A stretch of DNA of 64,000 nt from an uncultured Candidatus Saccharibacteria bacterium. GTDB lineage: Bacteria > Patescibacteriota > Dojkabacteria > J137. The position numbers were made by a program, and so were the translations under genes. The stretch's first letter is position 1; each line of letters begins with the position of its first letter. The stretch is from the NCBI GenBank assembly GCA_964607415.1, contig CAZSKK010000002.1, positions 9,991 through 73,990 of the forward strand. The letters run 5' to 3'. The notes beneath the pieces are model-generated. The model had not been told where the DNA came from, did not search any database, and saw only the letters and a program-made list of their open reading frames with translations. This document shows, in pieces, positions 10,088-62,442 of the stretch.

Positions 10088-13000
10088 TTAGTTTATTGTA
10101 ATATTGCCACTATTGGGTGATCTTAATGTACCTGTATTGCCCACTGACACAAACACTACAAATGCGTATATGTCACCAACTTGCCTATCAGAAGGCGGCG
10201 TCCATGAATAGCTGTAAACATTTCCTATTTGATTCATATTTCCTGGCAATAGAGTTGTTGTAGTATTTCCGGCTCTAGTCCTAAGCTGATAAATTTGTGC
10301 AGTACCTACTGCATTAGGACCAGAATAAGTTACTGTAACAGCCTGATCTGGTAGTGAAGCAGGAGTTGCAGGTAAACTTGAAGGAAGTGGTCCAAAAGAA
10401 AGGTTTGAAGAAACCTCAGCACCTATTATAACTCTTATGTCTTGATTCCTTGTTAATGAGTTACTATCGCTAGCAGACAATCTTAAAGTATAAGTTCCAT
10501 TCTCTAAATTCAAAGACGCAATATTAAATGTCACATCGAAGTTAGAATATGTGGTTGAAGTACCAATTGGTAATCCATCAAGATAAAAACTAAGACTTGT
10601 TATATTTCCACTGGTAGTAAATACACTTCCACGAATATTTATATTGTTGCCAGAAATAACCTGGTTTGCAGTAGGAGCCTGAACAGAGAAGAAAGGACCA
10701 GGTGTTCCGGAACTTCTATCTATATTACATTGTTCTGTAGGGATTATATTTTGCTTAACGGTAGGATCTTCAGCACTTTTACCGCTGATGTAAGCATCTA
10801 AAAAATTCTGCCATCCAGCTACAGGGCTCTTATAATAAGTAAATTCTACTTCTTCAGCAAAACCTAGTGTTCTGTCTACATCTCTTGCAAGCCTGTCTCT
10901 TTGATCCCTGCAAACAGTAGCCCTTGTTCTTATGATTGTTCTTTCTGGATTCCTATCAACTATCATCCAGTTTCTTTCAAAACCTTGGCATTCTCCCGCG
11001 TCATTACAATCACCACCACCTTCATATACAAATCCCGGTCTATTTGTATCCCAAGATGTCTTGGCAGAGAAGTAAGGAGCTTCTCCTACATCTCTCATGT
11101 AATTTTTAACCCATGGTATTACAGTTGTTATTGGGAATGCTGCATTTGGATTCATTGGATAGTTGTTGTTATTTCCTACCCATCCAACAGTCACAAAATC
11201 AGGTGAATATGCCACAAACCAGTTATCCTTGTTGTCTTCTGATGTTCCTGTTTTACCAGATAAATCTCTTTGATCCCAGGAAAATCCATCAAGATTTTTT
11301 AATGATTGATTTAGAAGGTATACTCCTTGCGCATCTGCTACAGATTTTCTTTGCGGATTTGCTTGATATACTACATTTCCATCTTTATCTTCTATTTTTA
11401 AAATTGGGTCAAGCTGAACAAAGTCACCACCATTTGCAAATACACCGAAAGCCTGTGCATGTTCAACTGGATATACAGAAGTACCTCCAAGGATTACTGA
11501 GTGACCATAATCTTCATTATATGTGGTGTAGCCGAATTCTCGAGCTGTATTAACATAATTTTGAACACCAACCAATTCTACAACTTGTATAGCTGGAAGG
11601 TTTCTAGAATCTCTTAGCGCTTGCTGTGCAGTGTAGTTAATACCATTAAAGGTTCCATTCCAGTTTTTCGGACTATAACCTCCAATTTGAATAGGAATGT
11701 CTGGCAAGAAACTTCCTGGGAATAGCTTTCCTTCTTTGTAAGCCATATAATAACCCAATGGTTTATTTGTTGATCCAGGAGATTGTAGTGTTGTTAGAAC
11801 ATTAACTTGCGGATTGTATAGACAGTTTGCACCGTTACCGTCACAACCTTCACTAGTACCATAAAAGTCTTTAGACCCAACCATCGAAATGATTTGTCCA
11901 TTGCTTGGCGTTGTAGTTACAACGGCTGCATTATAAACATCCCAGTACGTGTAATCATTTCCAGCTCTTCTTACATAATCTTCTGCAATTCTTTGAATGT
12001 TATAGTCTAAAGAAGTATAGATCTTGTAGCCTCCAGAACCTAATTCAGCGTTTGTAAAAGGCTCCTGACCATTTTTGTAGTTTCTAGTTGTTAGTTGAGT
12101 TAGAACGTAGTCAACAAAGTGGCCGGCTTTTTTGTCAGTTGCAATAGGTGGTTTATATGCAAGTTCTTGATTTCTTGCTTCTTCAAGCATCTCCTTCGTA
12201 ATTACATCGTCCATTTCAGGATCATCGTAATTCTTTCTAGTTTGATCATTGATTTTTCCTAGATTATTTTCTAATTGGCCAAGAATATATAACTGTCTTT
12301 CCTTAACTTTAGCTTGAGCAGTTTCAGGATCAGGTAGGCCTTTTGTAGGTGAAAGCCTTGAAGGATTTTGAATAATAGCAGCTAAAATTGCTCCTTCTGC
12401 TAATGTTAAATCTTTTGGATCTTTATCAAAATAGAATTGTGAAGCTGTATTAATACCATAAATGGTTGCTCCAAAAGGTGCAACTTGCAAATACATTTGC
12501 AAAATATCGTCCTTAGAGTTTGATTGCTCAACTTTAATAGAAAGAAGAACTTCTTTTATTTTTCTTTCAATTTTTACCTCACTTTGTTTAGTTGTGATTT
12601 TCACCAACTGCTGGGTAATTGTACTTCCTCCACAAACATTATTTGAATCTTTTACATAGTTAACTCCACAACGCAGAATAGCTGCAGGGTCAAATCCTTT
12701 ATGTTCATAAAATGATTCGTCTTCTGCTGCAATAAATGCCCATTTTACGTACTCAGGAATTTCTTCGATATTTACAGGGTCGCTATTATATTGTTCATCG
12801 ATTTGTCTATATAATAAAGTGCCCTTACCATCTCCTTGCTCTAGCTCGTTTCTATCATAAATTTCACTTGCTACTGGGATCTCGGGAAAAACTGCATCTG
12901 TTGTTGGAATTTCTTTATTAAGTCTCTGAAGCCATGAAAATAGCAATAATCCAATAATTGCTCCAGCTACAATAAATACTGTAGCCAAAACTAGAGCAAT

Positions 13001-13709: not shown

Positions 13710-13845
13710 ATTATCGCATTTTATATGAAAATTTCTTGGAAGGAAATAGATAGGGTTTTTGAAAGTATTAAGGAGAACTACTTCAGTTTAAGTTGAAGTG
13801 TAAGCTTAAGTATCGAGTCTATTGCTAGTTACTTAAACTATTGCT

Positions 13846-13934
13846 AATTTTTTTTGGCGGAGGGAGTGAGATTCGAACTCACGGTCCCTTGCGAGACGCC
13901 CGTTTTCAAGACGGGTACATTAGACCACTCTGCC
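13846..13934 (-). tRNA. tRNA-Ser (anticodon UGA), type II with long variable arm, CCA encoded
   Basis: Reverse complement GGGAGGGATGGCAGAGTGGTCTAATG...CGTCTTGAAAACGGG...GAGTTCGAATCTCACTCCCTCCGCCA; anticodon loop CTTGAAA. Confidence 0.85.
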
Positions 13935-29246: not shown

Positions 29247-29274
29247 ATATAAAAAATGCTTTTACATCTTACTT

Positions 29275-29355
29275 CTCCTGAAAATGCACATTATGCATTC
29301 AAATGCAGTTAATTTAGTTACACTCAACAGCACAACATGCTGTCTCAGGATGAGG
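29275..29355. repeat. copy A of an ~80-nt structured intergenic repeat (two covarying hairpins), between pilT and pilC
   Basis: CTCCTGAAAATGCACATTATGCATT...ACAGCACAACATGCTGTCTCAGGATGAGG; matches 53074-53152 and 62235-62335. Confidence 0.75.
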
Positions 29356-29382: not shown

Positions 29383-29456
29383 CTCGACAACAGCATAATA
29401 TGCTTTTTCGAGTTGATCCTGAACTTGCTTGCCAGCCTATGCTATGGTTTCAGGAT
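29383..29456. repeat. degenerate relic of the repeat family (second-hairpin copy + ATCCTGAA...TTCAGGAT inverted repeat)
   Basis: CTCGACAACAGCATAATATGCTTT resembles hairpin 2 of copy C; GATCCTGAACTTG shared with 61010-61023. Confidence 0.5.
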
Positions 29457-47280: not shown

Positions 47281-47434
47281 AGTGGGTAGAATTAATAACT
47301 AACTAGACTAGAATTAACTATAGCAGATTAAAGGAAAGAAGAGAATATGAAAAGCAAAAAAAGAGAAAGAGACAGTTTAAGCTTAGGTATATGTTCAAGT
47401 AATAAGCGCTGATGACTTAAACTTGAACTAGTTT

Positions 47435-48996: not shown

Positions 48997-49524
48997 TTAG
49001 TTCAGAATATGATAAGTTGTTGCGTGATCTTCTAAAGTTTCAAAGTCTGAATCGTCAAATTTAAACTTGGTATCTTCTATTATATTCTGGCTGCCTAATT
49101 CTTTTTTGGATAATTCTATCCAGCTGGAATCACCAGTTAAAATTACTTTAACTGGATCAAAAATTTCTATGTAACGTTTTAGATACTTTTCGCTCACATT
49201 AGAAAGTATCAAAACATACGAATTAGATAAATTCTCTGCCTGTTTTTTCTCAACCTCAACATCCGAAAACATACACACAACTCCTACCGATCCAGATTCT
49301 ACATAACTCAGATCTATTTTTGATTCCATCTGGTCTTTTTTTGATTCTAGAACAAGAATATCTAAAGTTCCAAATTCATATTCGCCCGGTTTTTCAATTA
49401 CACTTTCTCCTCGTTCTGAATTTACAACGAATTTAATTTCTTTTACATTTGAAAAATCAAGAATTGCTTTTGATTTAGGAACTTCAAAGCTCAATTGAGT
49501 CTTACTTGCTTTTTTAATTGTCAT
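48997..49524 (-). CDS. hypothetical protein (175 aa) immediately upstream of dnaB
   Basis: Not L9; no motif recognised. Confidence 0.4.
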   Translation of the reverse strand: MTIKKASKTQLSFEVPKSKAILDFSNVKEIKFVVNSERGESVIEKPGEYEFGTLDILVLESKKDQMESKIDLSYVESGSVGVVCMFSDVEVEKKQAENLSNSYVLILSNVSEKYLKRYIEIFDPVKVILTGDSSWIELSKKELGSQNIIEDTKFKFDDSDFETLEDHATTYHILN

Positions 49525-49705
49525 AAAAGTTAGTTAAAGGTTAAATGTTAATAGTTAATGGTTGAATGTTAAAGCTGTTTGAACTGCCTTGTATAAAAAT
49601 TAATTAACACTTCACTATCTAAAGGATTTACAAAAAGAGATCAGATGTTAGTGACTATTAGCCTATGATTGAGCTTTGTGTGAAATTCGTAAATGCGTCA
49701 CTTAT

Positions 49706-49777
49706 GTCATCCTGAGCTTATCGAATCTATACCTCAGCCAAGTATTTTTGTCTACCCTTCGACAAGCTCAGGATGAC
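49706..49777. mobile_element. MITE-like miniature element: 20-bp terminal inverted repeats GTCATCCTGAGCTTATCGAA / TTCGACAAGCTCAGGATGAC around a 32-bp core
   Basis: 19/20 matching inverted termini seen directly; ends share the CATCCTGAG/CTCAGGATG motif with the structured repeat family. Confidence 0.55.
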
Positions 49778-49990
49778 ATAATTACAATGTTAAATAAAGT
49801 TCATTATACTTATCTGGCTTAAAGTCTCTGGCTTTTACTCACGAATCTTAATCAGAAATCTGAACTCTATCATCTGTTCTCTGACTTCTAATCTTCCCAG
49901 TAATTATAATATCTTTTGAAAATTTAACAAATGTTTTTTAACATAATCTGATACCTCTAGCTAGAACTTTTGTTCAGACTTGATTTTTAA

Positions 49991-50005
49991 TTCACGAATC
50001 GTGAA
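49991..50005. promoter_or_regulatory. perfect palindrome TTCACGAATCGTGAA ~20 bp upstream of the rpmE -35 box
   Basis: 7-1-7 dyad; a near-identical TTCATGAATCGTGAA sits at 59832-59846. Confidence 0.4.
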
Positions 50006-50026
50006 TTTATATTCAGAGAATTGTTC

Positions 50027-50055
50027 TTTACATATGTTAATTTTATCGATATAAT
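50027..50055 (+). promoter_or_regulatory. putative promoter TTTACA-N17-TATAAT for rpmE
   Basis: Consensus -10 and near-consensus -35 about 30 nt upstream of the rpmE start. Confidence 0.5.
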
Positions 50056-50085
50056 TCTAATGCTTTAAAAGTAATACACAGTCTT

Positions 50086-50403
50086 ATGAAAAAAGGAATT
50101 CATCCAGAATGGCATAAAAATGCAAAGATAATCTTTAACGGGAAACAGGTTATGACAGCAGGTTCAACAAAACCTGAGCTTAATCTTGAAATCTGGTCTG
50201 GAAATCATCCTTTCTATACAGGACAACAAATCTTAGTAGACACCGACAACCTTGTTGAAAAATTCAATAAGAAAAGAGAAGCTGCTCAAAATCTTTCTTC
50301 AAAAGTAGTCAGTAAAAAAGAAAAAAGAGCTAAAAGACGAACTACTGCATCTATCGCTAATAAGCCTGTCACACTAAAAGACATGCTTAAAGATTTACAG
50401 TAG
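50086..50403 (+). CDS. rpmE: 50S ribosomal protein L31 (zinc-free type, with basic C-terminal extension)
   Basis: MKKGIHPEWHK...NHPFYTGQQ; the four Zn-ligand Cys of type A L31 are absent. Confidence 0.8.
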   Translation: MKKGIHPEWHKNAKIIFNGKQVMTAGSTKPELNLEIWSGNHPFYTGQQILVDTDNLVEKFNKKREAAQNLSSKVVSKKEKRAKRRTTASIANKPVTLKDMLKDLQ

Positions 50404-53049: not shown

Positions 53050-53073
53050 ATATAAAAAGTTATTCCACATGCC

Positions 53074-53152
53074 TCTCCTAAGAATGCATAATGCATTCAA
53101 ATGCAGTTAATTAGCTACACTCAACAGCACAATGTGCTGTTTCGAGGTGTGG
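53074..53152. repeat. copy B of the structured intergenic repeat, between ssb and rpsR
   Basis: CTCCTAAGAATGCATAATGCATT...ACAGCACAATGTGCTGTTTCGAGGTGTGG. Confidence 0.75.
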
Positions 53153-59792: not shown

Positions 59793-59848
59793 AGATTCAG
59801 GAATTATGATTCAAGATTTAAGAATTCTTAATTCATGAATCGTGAATC
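59793..59848. repeat. cluster of GATTCA/TGAATC palindromic units including TTCATGAATCGTGAA in the rpsB-tsf spacer
   Basis: GATTCAGGAATTATGATTCAAGATTTAAGAATTCTTAATTCATGAATCGTGAATC seen directly. Confidence 0.45.
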
Positions 59849-60844
59849 TTACTTCTTACTACTCTTCTTTGTAGCTTTTCTTTTCTTCTCAGTTTCTTCC
59901 TGAACTCTCTCTAAAATCCCCTTTACTGCTTTGGATTTTGTAGCAGTTTTTTTAGGAGCAGTTGTTTGAACTTTTGGTTCACTTACAAATGCTTTAGCTT
60001 CTGCTTCAACTATTGCTTTAGCTTTTTCTTCTTCTAATGGCTCTTCTACCTTTGCAATTTTAACTTCTGCTTTTGCGTAGTCTTTAAGGTCATGTTTAAT
60101 ACCATTTCCGCCATTACCTGTTAAGACTGAATCTGCCAGGCATCCTACAATTAGTTCAAGAGTTTTTACTGCATCATCATTTGATGGAATTACATAGTCA
60201 GCTTTATCAGGATCGTTATTTGTATCAACAAGAGCAACAACAGGGATTCCTAGTTTTTTAGCTTCTCTGATTGCTCCCTTGTCATATTTAACATCAACAA
60301 CAACTACAGCTGTTGGTTTGCTTGCTAATAATTTTACTCCTGCGTAAAGTCTGTCTAATCTTTGCCATTCTTTCTTCATTCTAGAAATTTCGTACTTCGT
60401 TCTTCCTTCAACACCTTCTGTAAATGCTTGTTCAAGAGCTTTTAATTTATTCAAACTTCTTTTTACTTCTTCGAAGTTTGTAAGTAGTCCTCCTGCCCAT
60501 CTTTTATCAATAAAGAATGACCCCGATTTAATTGCGTTAGTTTTAATAATTTCTTGAGCTTGTTTTTTTGTTCCTACAAATAAAACCGGTCCTCTGCTTG
60601 CAGCTTCTACCAAGAATTCCGATGCTTTTTTAAGTGATTCAATTGTTTGTTCTGCATCAATAATGTGAATTCCGTTTTGAGCTTTGTAAATGAATTTCTT
60701 CATTTTAGGATTCCATCTTTGAGTTTCGTGTCCAAAGTGTGATCCTGCCTCTAGTAGGTCTTTTAGTGTAGGTAATTTAACTTTCTTTGGGGCTTTTTTT
60801 TCTACCGCAGCCTCTGCGTGAGTTGTTGAAGCGTCTGTCGCCAT
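59849..60844 (-). CDS. rpsB: 30S ribosomal protein S2 with extended Lys/Ala/Glu-rich C-terminus
   Basis: LLEAGSHFGHETQRWNPKM...LFVGTKKQAQ... Confidence 0.9.
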   Translation of the reverse strand: MATDASTTHAEAAVEKKAPKKVKLPTLKDLLEAGSHFGHETQRWNPKMKKFIYKAQNGIHIIDAEQTIESLKKASEFLVEAASRGPVLFVGTKKQAQEIIKTNAIKSGSFFIDKRWAGGLLTNFEEVKRSLNKLKALEQAFTEGVEGRTKYEISRMKKEWQRLDRLYAGVKLLASKPTAVVVVDVKYDKGAIREAKKLGIPVVALVDTNNDPDKADYVIPSNDDAVKTLELIVGCLADSVLTGNGGNGIKHDLKDYAKAEVKIAKVEEPLEEEKAKAIVEAEAKAFVSEPKVQTTAPKKTATKSKAVKGILERVQEETEKKRKATKKSSKK

Positions 60845-61859: not shown

Positions 61860-62213
61860 TTAAAGCTCTTCTGCAATCCTATTCAGTACTTTATCAATAT
61901 CCAAGAAAACCTCTTCATTTGTAAATCTGATTATTTTTATATAGAAACTTTCAATATGTACAGTTCTTACTCTGTCGTAATCTGATATTTCAGGTAATAA
62001 ATGGTGTGAACCGTCAATTTCAATACCTAGTCTGCTACCAGGGCAATAAAAATCCAAAATATATTTGCCAATGGAATACTGCCTTAGAAATCTTACGCCA
62101 TACAGCCTACGCTTTCTAAGATTTTTCCACATCAAAGCCTCGTAGTCTGTAGGCGACTTTCTTAGTTCTCTTCTGTAGTATTTTAAATTTTCAGTGTTGT
62201 ATAACTTAGTCAT
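61860..62213 (-). CDS. DUF559 (Vsr-like endonuclease fold) protein
   Basis: MTKLYNTENLKYYRRELRKSPTDYEALMWKNLR...YILDFYCP...IEIDG; start trimmed because the upstream in-frame codons lie across repeat copy C. Confidence 0.6.
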   Translation of the reverse strand: MTKLYNTENLKYYRRELRKSPTDYEALMWKNLRKRRLYGVRFLRQYSIGKYILDFYCPGSRLGIEIDGSHHLLPEISDYDRVRTVHIESFYIKIIRFTNEEVFLDIDKVLNRIAEEL

Positions 62214-62234
62214 AATTGGAATAACCCCACCGGC

Positions 62235-62335
62235 TCTCCGAGCCACCCGAAAATGCACATTGTGCATTTGAGTGCAGCTTACTAGAGGGCCTCATTAGCT
62301 CCACTCGACAGCATAATATGCTGTCTCAGGGGAGG
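62235..62335. repeat. copy C of the structured intergenic repeat (with ~20-nt internal insertion), in the DUF559 upstream region
   Basis: CTCTCCGAGCCACCCGAAAATGCACATTGTGCATT...ACAGCATAATATGCTGTCTCAGGGGAGG. Confidence 0.75.
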
Positions 62336-62442
62336 AATCAAAGGAGGGGTTATTAAGTGTACCGAATAGTATAAAGTTCCGCATTGTACCGCAGCACAAA
62401 TTTCATCTGATATAATTTGTAATTACTCTTTAAAACTACCCT

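Follow-up and report, generated by a model that had tools for sequence, protein, structure and literature searches.

The 64,000-nucleotide window analysed here (G+C ~32%), from an uncultured member of the Dojkabacteria (a placement given by its PilC homologues), carries on its minus strand three copies of a structured intergenic element. By Pfam assignment, copy A (29272-29355) occupies the pilT-pilC spacer, with a T2SSE ATPase of 494 aa on one side and PilC (T2SSF) on the other, copy B (53072-53152) lies between ssb and rpsR (S18) in an rpsF-ssb-rpsR cluster, and copy C (62243-62337) forms the 5' leader of a DUF559 gene divergent from an Exo_endo_phos gene. A preliminary description of the sequence had placed three copies at these sites; they are real, with the boundaries refined to those given above, and the hairpin sequences and partial end complementarity quoted there are correct as read on the plus strand. 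All three copies point in the same direction as their downstream genes, as that description also stated, and they end 22-26 nt before the start codons of pilC, rpsR and DUF559. A degenerate 23-nt core pattern picked out copies A, B and C and nothing else in the window, with no match in 100 shuffles, and a repeat search of the window recovered both halves of the element as three-copy families (D1 and D5). A link to DUF559 genes was rejected, as no close paralogues were found.

The element had been described as two hairpins, which did not hold: a third, middle hairpin (H2) and a closing stem were found, so that the fold is a four-way junction. On the minus strand each copy consists of three 8-bp hairpins, H1 (consensus ACAGCAYrnuRUGCUGU, also written ACAGCAYnnnRUGCUGU), H2 (GAGUGKAR...CUGCAYUY, with a variable loop) and H3 (AAUGCAY..RUGCAUU, also AAUGCAYnnnRUGCAUU), enclosed by an outer stem between a pyrimidine and a purine tract. 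In copy A (97.7 bits with R1, the covariance model derived from the three full copies) the 5' pyrimidine flank CCUCAUCCUGAGA (29343-29355) pairs with the 3' purine flank UUUCAGGAGAAG (29272-29283) around H1 (29326-29344), H2 (29301-29325) and H3 (29282-29300), and a tail, UAAGAUGUAAAAGCAUUUUUUAUAU (29247-29271), ends at the pilC AUG (29246). Copy B (91.4 bits) has the flanks CCACACCUCGAA (53141-53152) and UUAGGAGAGG (53072-53081) around H1 (53123-53141), H2 (53099-53122) and H3 (53082-53098), and its tail CAUGUGGAAUAACUUUUUAUAU (53050-53071), which ends at the rpsR AUG (53049), lengthens the outer stem by pairing UGUGG with CCACA. Copy C (83.8 bits) has the flanks UUCCUCCCCUGAGA (62324-62337) and UCGGGUGG (62243-62250) around H1 (62307-62325), H2 (62270-62306; its loop holds a 12-nt insertion) and H3 (62251-62269). 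Around copy C, on the same strand, AAUAACCCCUCC (62343-62354) and GGUGGGGUUAUU (62220-62231) form an extended outer stem spanning 62220-62354, a small hairpin, GGCUCGGAGAGCC (62232-62244), lies beside the copy, and the complete leader up to the DUF559 AUG at 62213, which has a further outer stem AAUAACCCC/GGGGUUAUU, folds at -60 kcal/mol.

No base is left unpaired at the junction, which makes it a perfect four-way junction. This cloverleaf is the minimum-free-energy fold of copies B and C; copy A favours an alternative fold, a long hairpin formed by H1 and H3, whose near-identity as palindromes allows them to pair with each other. The two share a single gap-free 19-nt scaffold, and H3 is a paralogue of H1. 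Fold z-scores of the three copies range from -3.9 to -6.5, the purine tract is paired in every case, and in the extended folds the start codons are unpaired within A/U-rich sequence. With the tRNA cloverleaf the element shares a four-way junction, a closing stem of 5-7 bp and three arms, but it differs in having no D- or T-loop motifs, no tRNA junction nucleotides and no anticodon-type loop, its arms being 8-bp helices with 3-nt loops; a tRNA-like element was rejected because ARAGORN and the Rfam tRNA model detected only three true tRNAs. Neither tRNA-Ser nor tRNA-Leu is similar to H1, and both were dismissed as its source. A hammerhead-like core was rejected on sequence, since CUGAGAC does not fit CUGANGA and copy B is without it.

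The element probably also misleads gene callers. The database call for S18 starts at AUG 53070, within the copy B region (53050-53070), and gives 89 aa against 83 aa in relatives, and the DUF559 call (135 aa) starts at AUG 62267, inside copy C (stretch concerned, 62214-62267); both starts are probably mis-annotations caused by the repeat. In copy C and in a further copy, F, Logan short-read contigs of the same species repeatedly break off or begin within a hairpin (H3 of copy C, 62241-62270; H1 of copy F, L013 7661-7679), consistent with assembly-graph breaks at repeats, and the element may therefore fragment short-read assemblies.

The sense strand of the RNA is the minus strand, that is, the sense of the downstream genes. 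On this strand the cells that depart from Watson-Crick pairing are 15 G.U against 3 A.C, and 12 against 3 (binomial p=0.018) if the H2 wobbles common to copies A and B enter the count a single time. In copies A and B, H2 can pair only as sense RNA, the opposite strand having A.C mismatches. Copy A folds at -34.6 kcal/mol in the sense orientation versus -23.5 kcal/mol in the antisense orientation, and in copies B and C both strands fold almost equally well. Copies A-C score 84-98 bits on the minus strand versus 43-61 bits on the plus strand with a model that was itself built on the sense strand.

Compensatory changes between copies had been taken as a sign of selection on the fold, a claim that stands in part. 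Of the cells in the three full copies 94.9% are paired, and double-sided changes occur in five pairs, with variation inside the hairpins confined to each stem's bottom and top pairs; this covariation is not significant, since the percentage paired together with the double-change count was reached by 81 of 500 shuffles and the covariation score by 54 of 500. The ten pooled H1/H3 hairpins do carry the signal: 98.6% of cells are paired, double changes occur in four of the eight pairs, and the covariation score of 0.431, versus 0.193 in shuffles, was reached in none of 500. Pairing is thus kept through changes on both sides, but the pooled copies are related and palindrome-templated correction would give the same pattern without selection on RNA.

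In the window, R1 found no further full copy and matched one degenerate solo H1 hairpin (copy A', CUCGAAAAAGCAUAUUAUGCUGUUGUCGAG; 29383-29412, minus strand, 12.7 bits) lying 28 nt 5' of copy A (29383 versus 29355). R1 also picked up more divergent H1-bearing copies just beyond both window ends, on contigs of the same species: copy D between tRNA-Phe and tRNA-Val, copy E 5' of murA, and copy F 5' of tRNA-Tyr, where a short-read contig ends inside H1. Seven H1 instances occur in the ~72 kb of this genome that were read, every one co-oriented with its downstream gene. Copy E is ordered as a TATAAT box, H1, a degenerate H2, CCUCACCC, H4 (a 9-bp hairpin with an ACAAAG loop), H5 (CCUCUCCU-AAA-AGGAGAGG) and a tail, GCAUGUGGAAUAAACUUAAUAUAU, extending as far as the AUG. 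The family is therefore modular, with H1-only and degenerate copies beside the full form. Scanning ~220 kb of relatives' sequence with R1 gave no core copies; the strict pattern GCTGTYGAGTGN{8,38}GCAYTYRAATGCA, searched against 185,579 representative genomes and 241 million metagenome records, hit only one unrelated Selenomonadales sequence; and scans of IMG/VR viral sequences returned one chance match in a probable coding region and nothing else. No relevant publication on repeats in Dojkabacteria or other CPR bacteria came up in a literature search, and to our knowledge small structured repeats in reduced CPR genomes have been little described.

Copies A, B and C have no match in Rfam at the gathering threshold, at E<=10 (copy A) or at E<=1 (whole window), which agrees with the initial failure to match the element to a known family; that impression fails for the flanks and sibling elements, which are whalefall-1 (RF01762). 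RF01762 gives 45.7 bits on the H4-H5 portion of copy E (gathering score 37), and in relatives with 87% PilC identity a copy 5' of gyrB (L009) scores 34.6 bits and a copy 5' of pilC (L010/L011) 32.0 bits. The H4 stems of these three copies differ on both strands (GUGAA/UUCAC, CUGA/UCAG and UUGC/GCAA) and the loop is conserved. Descriptions of whalefall-1 had been limited to whale-fall metagenomes, where it was classed as a non-coding RNA with a CUUG tetraloop (Weinberg et al. 2010, PMC2864571); neither an organism nor a context nor a function had been assigned to it.

In the whalefall-1 layout a CUCUCC-loop-GGAGAG hairpin stands next to a second hairpin of 9 bp, and a purine-rich GGGUGAGGA tract comes after them. 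Three parts of this layout persist in copies A and B: the pyrimidine tract, CCUCAYCC, complementary to the purine tail; AGGAGARG, from the 3' side of the first hairpin; and the adjoining tail. They differ in that the H1-H2-H3 core, which closes into the four-way junction, takes the place of the second, 9-bp hairpin and of half of the first. The replacement is seen at the orthologous pilC site, which in L010 reads CCTCATCC-[H4 + 5' half of H5]-AGGAGAAGTAAGTTGTATAA and in the window CCTCATCC-[TGAGA-H1-H2-H3-TTTTC]-AGGAGAAGTAAGATGTAAAA; copy A and the L010 element have CCTCATCC ... AGGAGAAGTAAG in common, with different interiors, and their tails are homologous. The tail of copy B is near-identical to that of copy E, the whalefall-1 copy 5' of murA, and the best matches in the window to R2, a sense-strand model of the whalefall-1-type (type II) element, are copy B and copy A. 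From the shared flanks, the tail and the R2 ranking we conclude that the window element is a derivative in which the three-hairpin core replaces the whalefall-1 interior.

The orientation supported here is opposite to that of Rfam, as each of the three RF01762 matches (copy E, L009 gyrB and L010 pilC) lies antisense to the gene beside it. In the original whale-fall sequences, tetraloops and G.U pairs favour the Rfam orientation, in conflict with the sense-strand reading. Whalefall-1 gains from these matches a likely host lineage, the Dojkabacteria, and a context, directly 5' of start codons and variable among close relatives; it proves to be one of the modules from which a wider family of mosaic repeats is built, and a derived family member forms a four-way junction.

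Occupancy of orthologous spacers differs among relatives. The pilT-pilC spacer, 251 nt in the window species, is 118 nt and free of the element in four relatives with 87% PilC identity (L009, L038, L039 and L041), 113 nt with a whalefall-1-type element in two others at 87% (L010 and L011), and 0-5 nt in relatives at 59-64% identity (L012 and L036). The ssb-rpsR spacer, ~119 nt in the window, measures 20, 22, 49 and 50 nt, without the element, in four relative alleles, and at gyrB a copy is present in L009 and absent in the window. Spacers that are empty or hold the whalefall-1 version show that the element turns over quickly, and its lack of conservation at orthologous sites argues against an ancient dedicated regulatory element; the suggestion of a miniature repeat, made at the outset, fits this pattern. 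No target-site duplication is visible on comparison of filled and empty ssb-rpsR and pilT-pilC sites, at the limited resolution given by relatives with 87% protein identity, and the filled sites look like spacer replacement rather than simple insertion. Neither the checked window ORFs nor the gene tables for the fetched loci include a transposase, of Y1/HUH, RAYT or any other type. The terminal complementarity (for example, CCTCATCCTGA versus TCAGGAGAAG) is ~8/10 and involves the same tracts that form the closing stem of the RNA.

No promoter or terminator was predicted within copies A and B or between them and their flanking genes, which makes co-transcription of these operon copies plausible, as had been proposed. 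No site with a GC-rich hairpin and U-run, of the kind expected of an intrinsic terminator, occurs in the regions of copies A, B and C, and a role as intrinsic terminator or internal promoter was rejected because no sites exceeded shuffled expectation. Window promoters look like extended -10 boxes (TGnTATAAT). A Shine-Dalgarno-like 4-mer lies within 20 nt 5' of the start in only 3 of the 57 window genes, and translation initiation in this organism appears to be independent of Shine-Dalgarno sequences; in a genome nearly devoid of them, the paired AGGAGARG tract of the element is conspicuous. The purine tract lies 25, 22, 23, 22 and 23 nt from the start codon in copies A, B and E and in the L010 and L009-gyrB copies, respectively, a constant spacing that keeps a regulatory reading alive, and in the same five copies an AUG or UUG comes 1-4 nt after the tract. 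A functional Shine-Dalgarno sequence or upstream ORF was rejected, because the genome is essentially free of the former and the upstream AUG is, depending on the copy, in frame, out of frame or followed by a stop codon (directly so in copy A). 'TATAT' just before the ATG was likewise rejected as proof of an exact element boundary, since a similar context precedes 13 of the 57 genes.

Taken together, we consider it probable that the element is a lineage-restricted, modular, dispersed mosaic repeat of Dojkabacteria (CPR) that is co-transcribed in leader RNA and acts there as a passive RNA domain. The repeat is real, of a fairly ordinary dispersed structured kind built on the whalefall-1 scaffold, and not categorically new. 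The H1-H2-H3 core sits between CCUCAYCC-like and AGGAGARG-like tracts whose pairing closes the four-way junction; flanks and tail are those of the two-hairpin whalefall-1 element, the core in copies A and B taking the place of H4 and the 5' half of H5. We infer that the unit is transcribed in the sense direction within the leader or intercistronic RNA of whichever gene follows, and the start codon, 22-26 nt past the element, would be left free in the unpaired A/U-rich tail. Its gain, loss and swapping among close relatives would most likely proceed by recombination or gene conversion between dispersed copies through their shared flanks rather than by cut-and-paste transposition, and recombination of this kind would explain why the same core stands between two different tails in copies A and B. 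Once transcribed, the stable domain may serve as a barrier to processing or decay and as an insulator of the translation start, comparable to REP/BIME, BOX and Correia elements, rather than as a switch for a ligand or signal. As a counterpoint, the similar distance to the start codon and the single orientation of all copies amount to more order than a purely selfish repeat needs. Through this family one can approach intergenic turnover, and perhaps the function of leader RNA, in an organism whose initiation is not Shine-Dalgarno-led.

A rival reading is a dedicated cis-regulatory leader, in which AGGAGARG would be clamped by competing CCUCAYCC or CYUCUCCU and a signal (protein, temperature or ribosome) would shift the pairing and so control translation or reinitiation at the AUG 22-25 nt downstream. 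Fixed orientation, near-constant distance between purine tract and start, invariable pairing of the tract, the prominence of AGGAG where so few genes have a Shine-Dalgarno sequence and the AUG or UUG just after the tract all fit such a device, but the downstream genes are unrelated (pilC, rpsR, DUF559, murA, gyrB and tRNAs), the same genes lack the element in close relatives, copy C is missing the AGGAG tract, the frame of the upstream AUG is inconsistent among copies, with its immediate stop in copy A, and the arms are plain helices with no conserved internal loops resembling a ligand pocket. We regard this leader as unlikely, and a riboswitch or gene-specific leader class does not describe the element, given that no one gene family lies downstream and that it is missing at the same genes in close relatives. 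The antisense placement of all three whalefall-1 matches raises a different prospect, a small RNA read from the opposite strand, in the Rfam orientation, from a promoter over the adjacent gene start in a divergent or cis-antisense arrangement, with the H1-H3 core as an insertion within it. Whalefall-1 was classed as a non-coding RNA with a CUUG tetraloop (Weinberg et al., PMC2864571); UCGG loops occur in the aligned whale-fall sequences, wf2 contigs have a conserved TTGACA 5' of the motif, and a promoter-like TTGAAT-16-TATATT lies just 5' of copy E in that orientation. This last match is no better than shuffled expectation, and the window copies themselves fold worse as antisense RNA (by more than 10 kcal/mol in copy A), show A.C mismatches in H2 of copies A and B, and score far lower on that strand, though with a sense-built model; we judge a small RNA of this kind to be quite unlikely.

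The element might instead work as DNA, its near-perfect H1 and H3 palindromes being bound or cleaved by a dimeric protein or a hairpin recombinase (RAYT, IS200/IS605-type) or extruded as cruciforms, in which case the compensatory changes would reflect palindrome-templated repair. Both hairpins consist of perfect 8-bp inverted repeats around a 3-nt spacer, solo H1 copies exist, the two strands of copies B and C fold almost equally well, and turnover among relatives is typical of mobile DNA. Against this stand the wobble strand bias, the co-orientation of every copy with transcription, the restriction of H2 pairing in copies A and B to sense RNA, and the lack of any Y1/HUH or other transposase in the window ORFs checked and the gene tables of the fetched loci, and we hold a DNA function to be very unlikely. 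A bolder proposal would make whalefall-1 and its four-way-junction derivative CPR-specific 'portable leaders', mobile cassettes of RNA structure that install themselves directly 5' of start codons, with no visible transposase, and clamp an SD-like purine tract in an SD-free genome; were this so, the translation or processing of arbitrary genes, essential ones included, would be rewired, but we put it forward as a long shot, on a par with the antisense RNA.

Our preferred reading, a co-transcribed passive mosaic repeat, has parallels among known extragenic repeats. REP/BIME elements of enterobacteria and BOX elements of Streptococcus pneumoniae are short extragenic mosaics of hairpins, co-transcribed and variably present, that are thought to act in mRNA stability or processing. 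The Dojkabacteria element resembles them as a short extragenic assembly of recombined hairpin modules that varies among relatives and would be co-transcribed, but it has no sequence similarity to them, no RAYT or other mobilising enzyme was found in the sequence read, and its position just 5' of start codons and strict co-orientation are atypical of REP or BOX. REP/BIME elements are further characterized by short imperfect palindromes with a conserved 5' tetranucleotide, high copy number and association with a RAYT gene; here there are palindromic modules and solo H1 copies, with the seven H1 instances noted above, and no RAYT within the same ~72 kb. MITEs such as the Correia elements of Neisseria and pneumococcal RUP are intergenic units of ~100 nt that show presence/absence polymorphism and affect the RNA of neighbouring genes. 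The element is similar in its length of ~100 nt, partly complementary ends, intergenic location and presence/absence polymorphism, but it differs in that no target-site duplication is visible, its sites are replacement-like, its ends are only ~8/10 complementary, and no parent IS was found in the window and fetched flanks.

Several other features were noted in passing. In a relative with 59% PilC identity (L037 3140-5085), a DNA methylase and EcoRII-C restriction gene pair is inserted directly behind pilC, ahead of the pilin genes. A second, unrelated inverted repeat, with 21-nt arms TGTCATCCTGAGCTTATCGAA / TTCGACAAGCTCAGGATGACA and a loop of ~32 nt, lies at 49705-49725 and 49758-49778 of the window, within a spacer separating divergent genes (49524 to 50086); another copy is found at a different locus, 5' of pilT, in an 87% relative (L039 1-80), so that this repeat looks mobile too. 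The palindrome AATTCACGAATCGTGAATT (AATTCATGAATCGTGAATC in the second copy) of family D10 occurs at 49989-50007, 5' of the gene at 50086, and at 59830-59848, overlapping the 3' end of rpsB (ORF 59849-60844) and 5' of tsf, and could be an operator or a terminator-like site. Directly 3' of tRNA-Leu(CAA) in a relative (L025 8223-8292, orthologous to window positions ~47360-47434) there is an H1-like hairpin, AACAGCATAAAATGCTGTT, followed by sequence resembling the tRNA's 3' half (GGGGTTCGAGTCCCTCCTTCGGTA) that is absent from the window; hairpin and tRNA-like piece could be an integration scar or a tRNA-derived fragment. Finally, a shared motif, TTAG(T)AGCAATAGTTTAAG, follows tRNA-Ser and tRNA-Phe on the minus strand (window ~13825-13850 and L019 ~12795-12825) and may be a signal associated with tRNA 3' processing or termination, or another short repeat.
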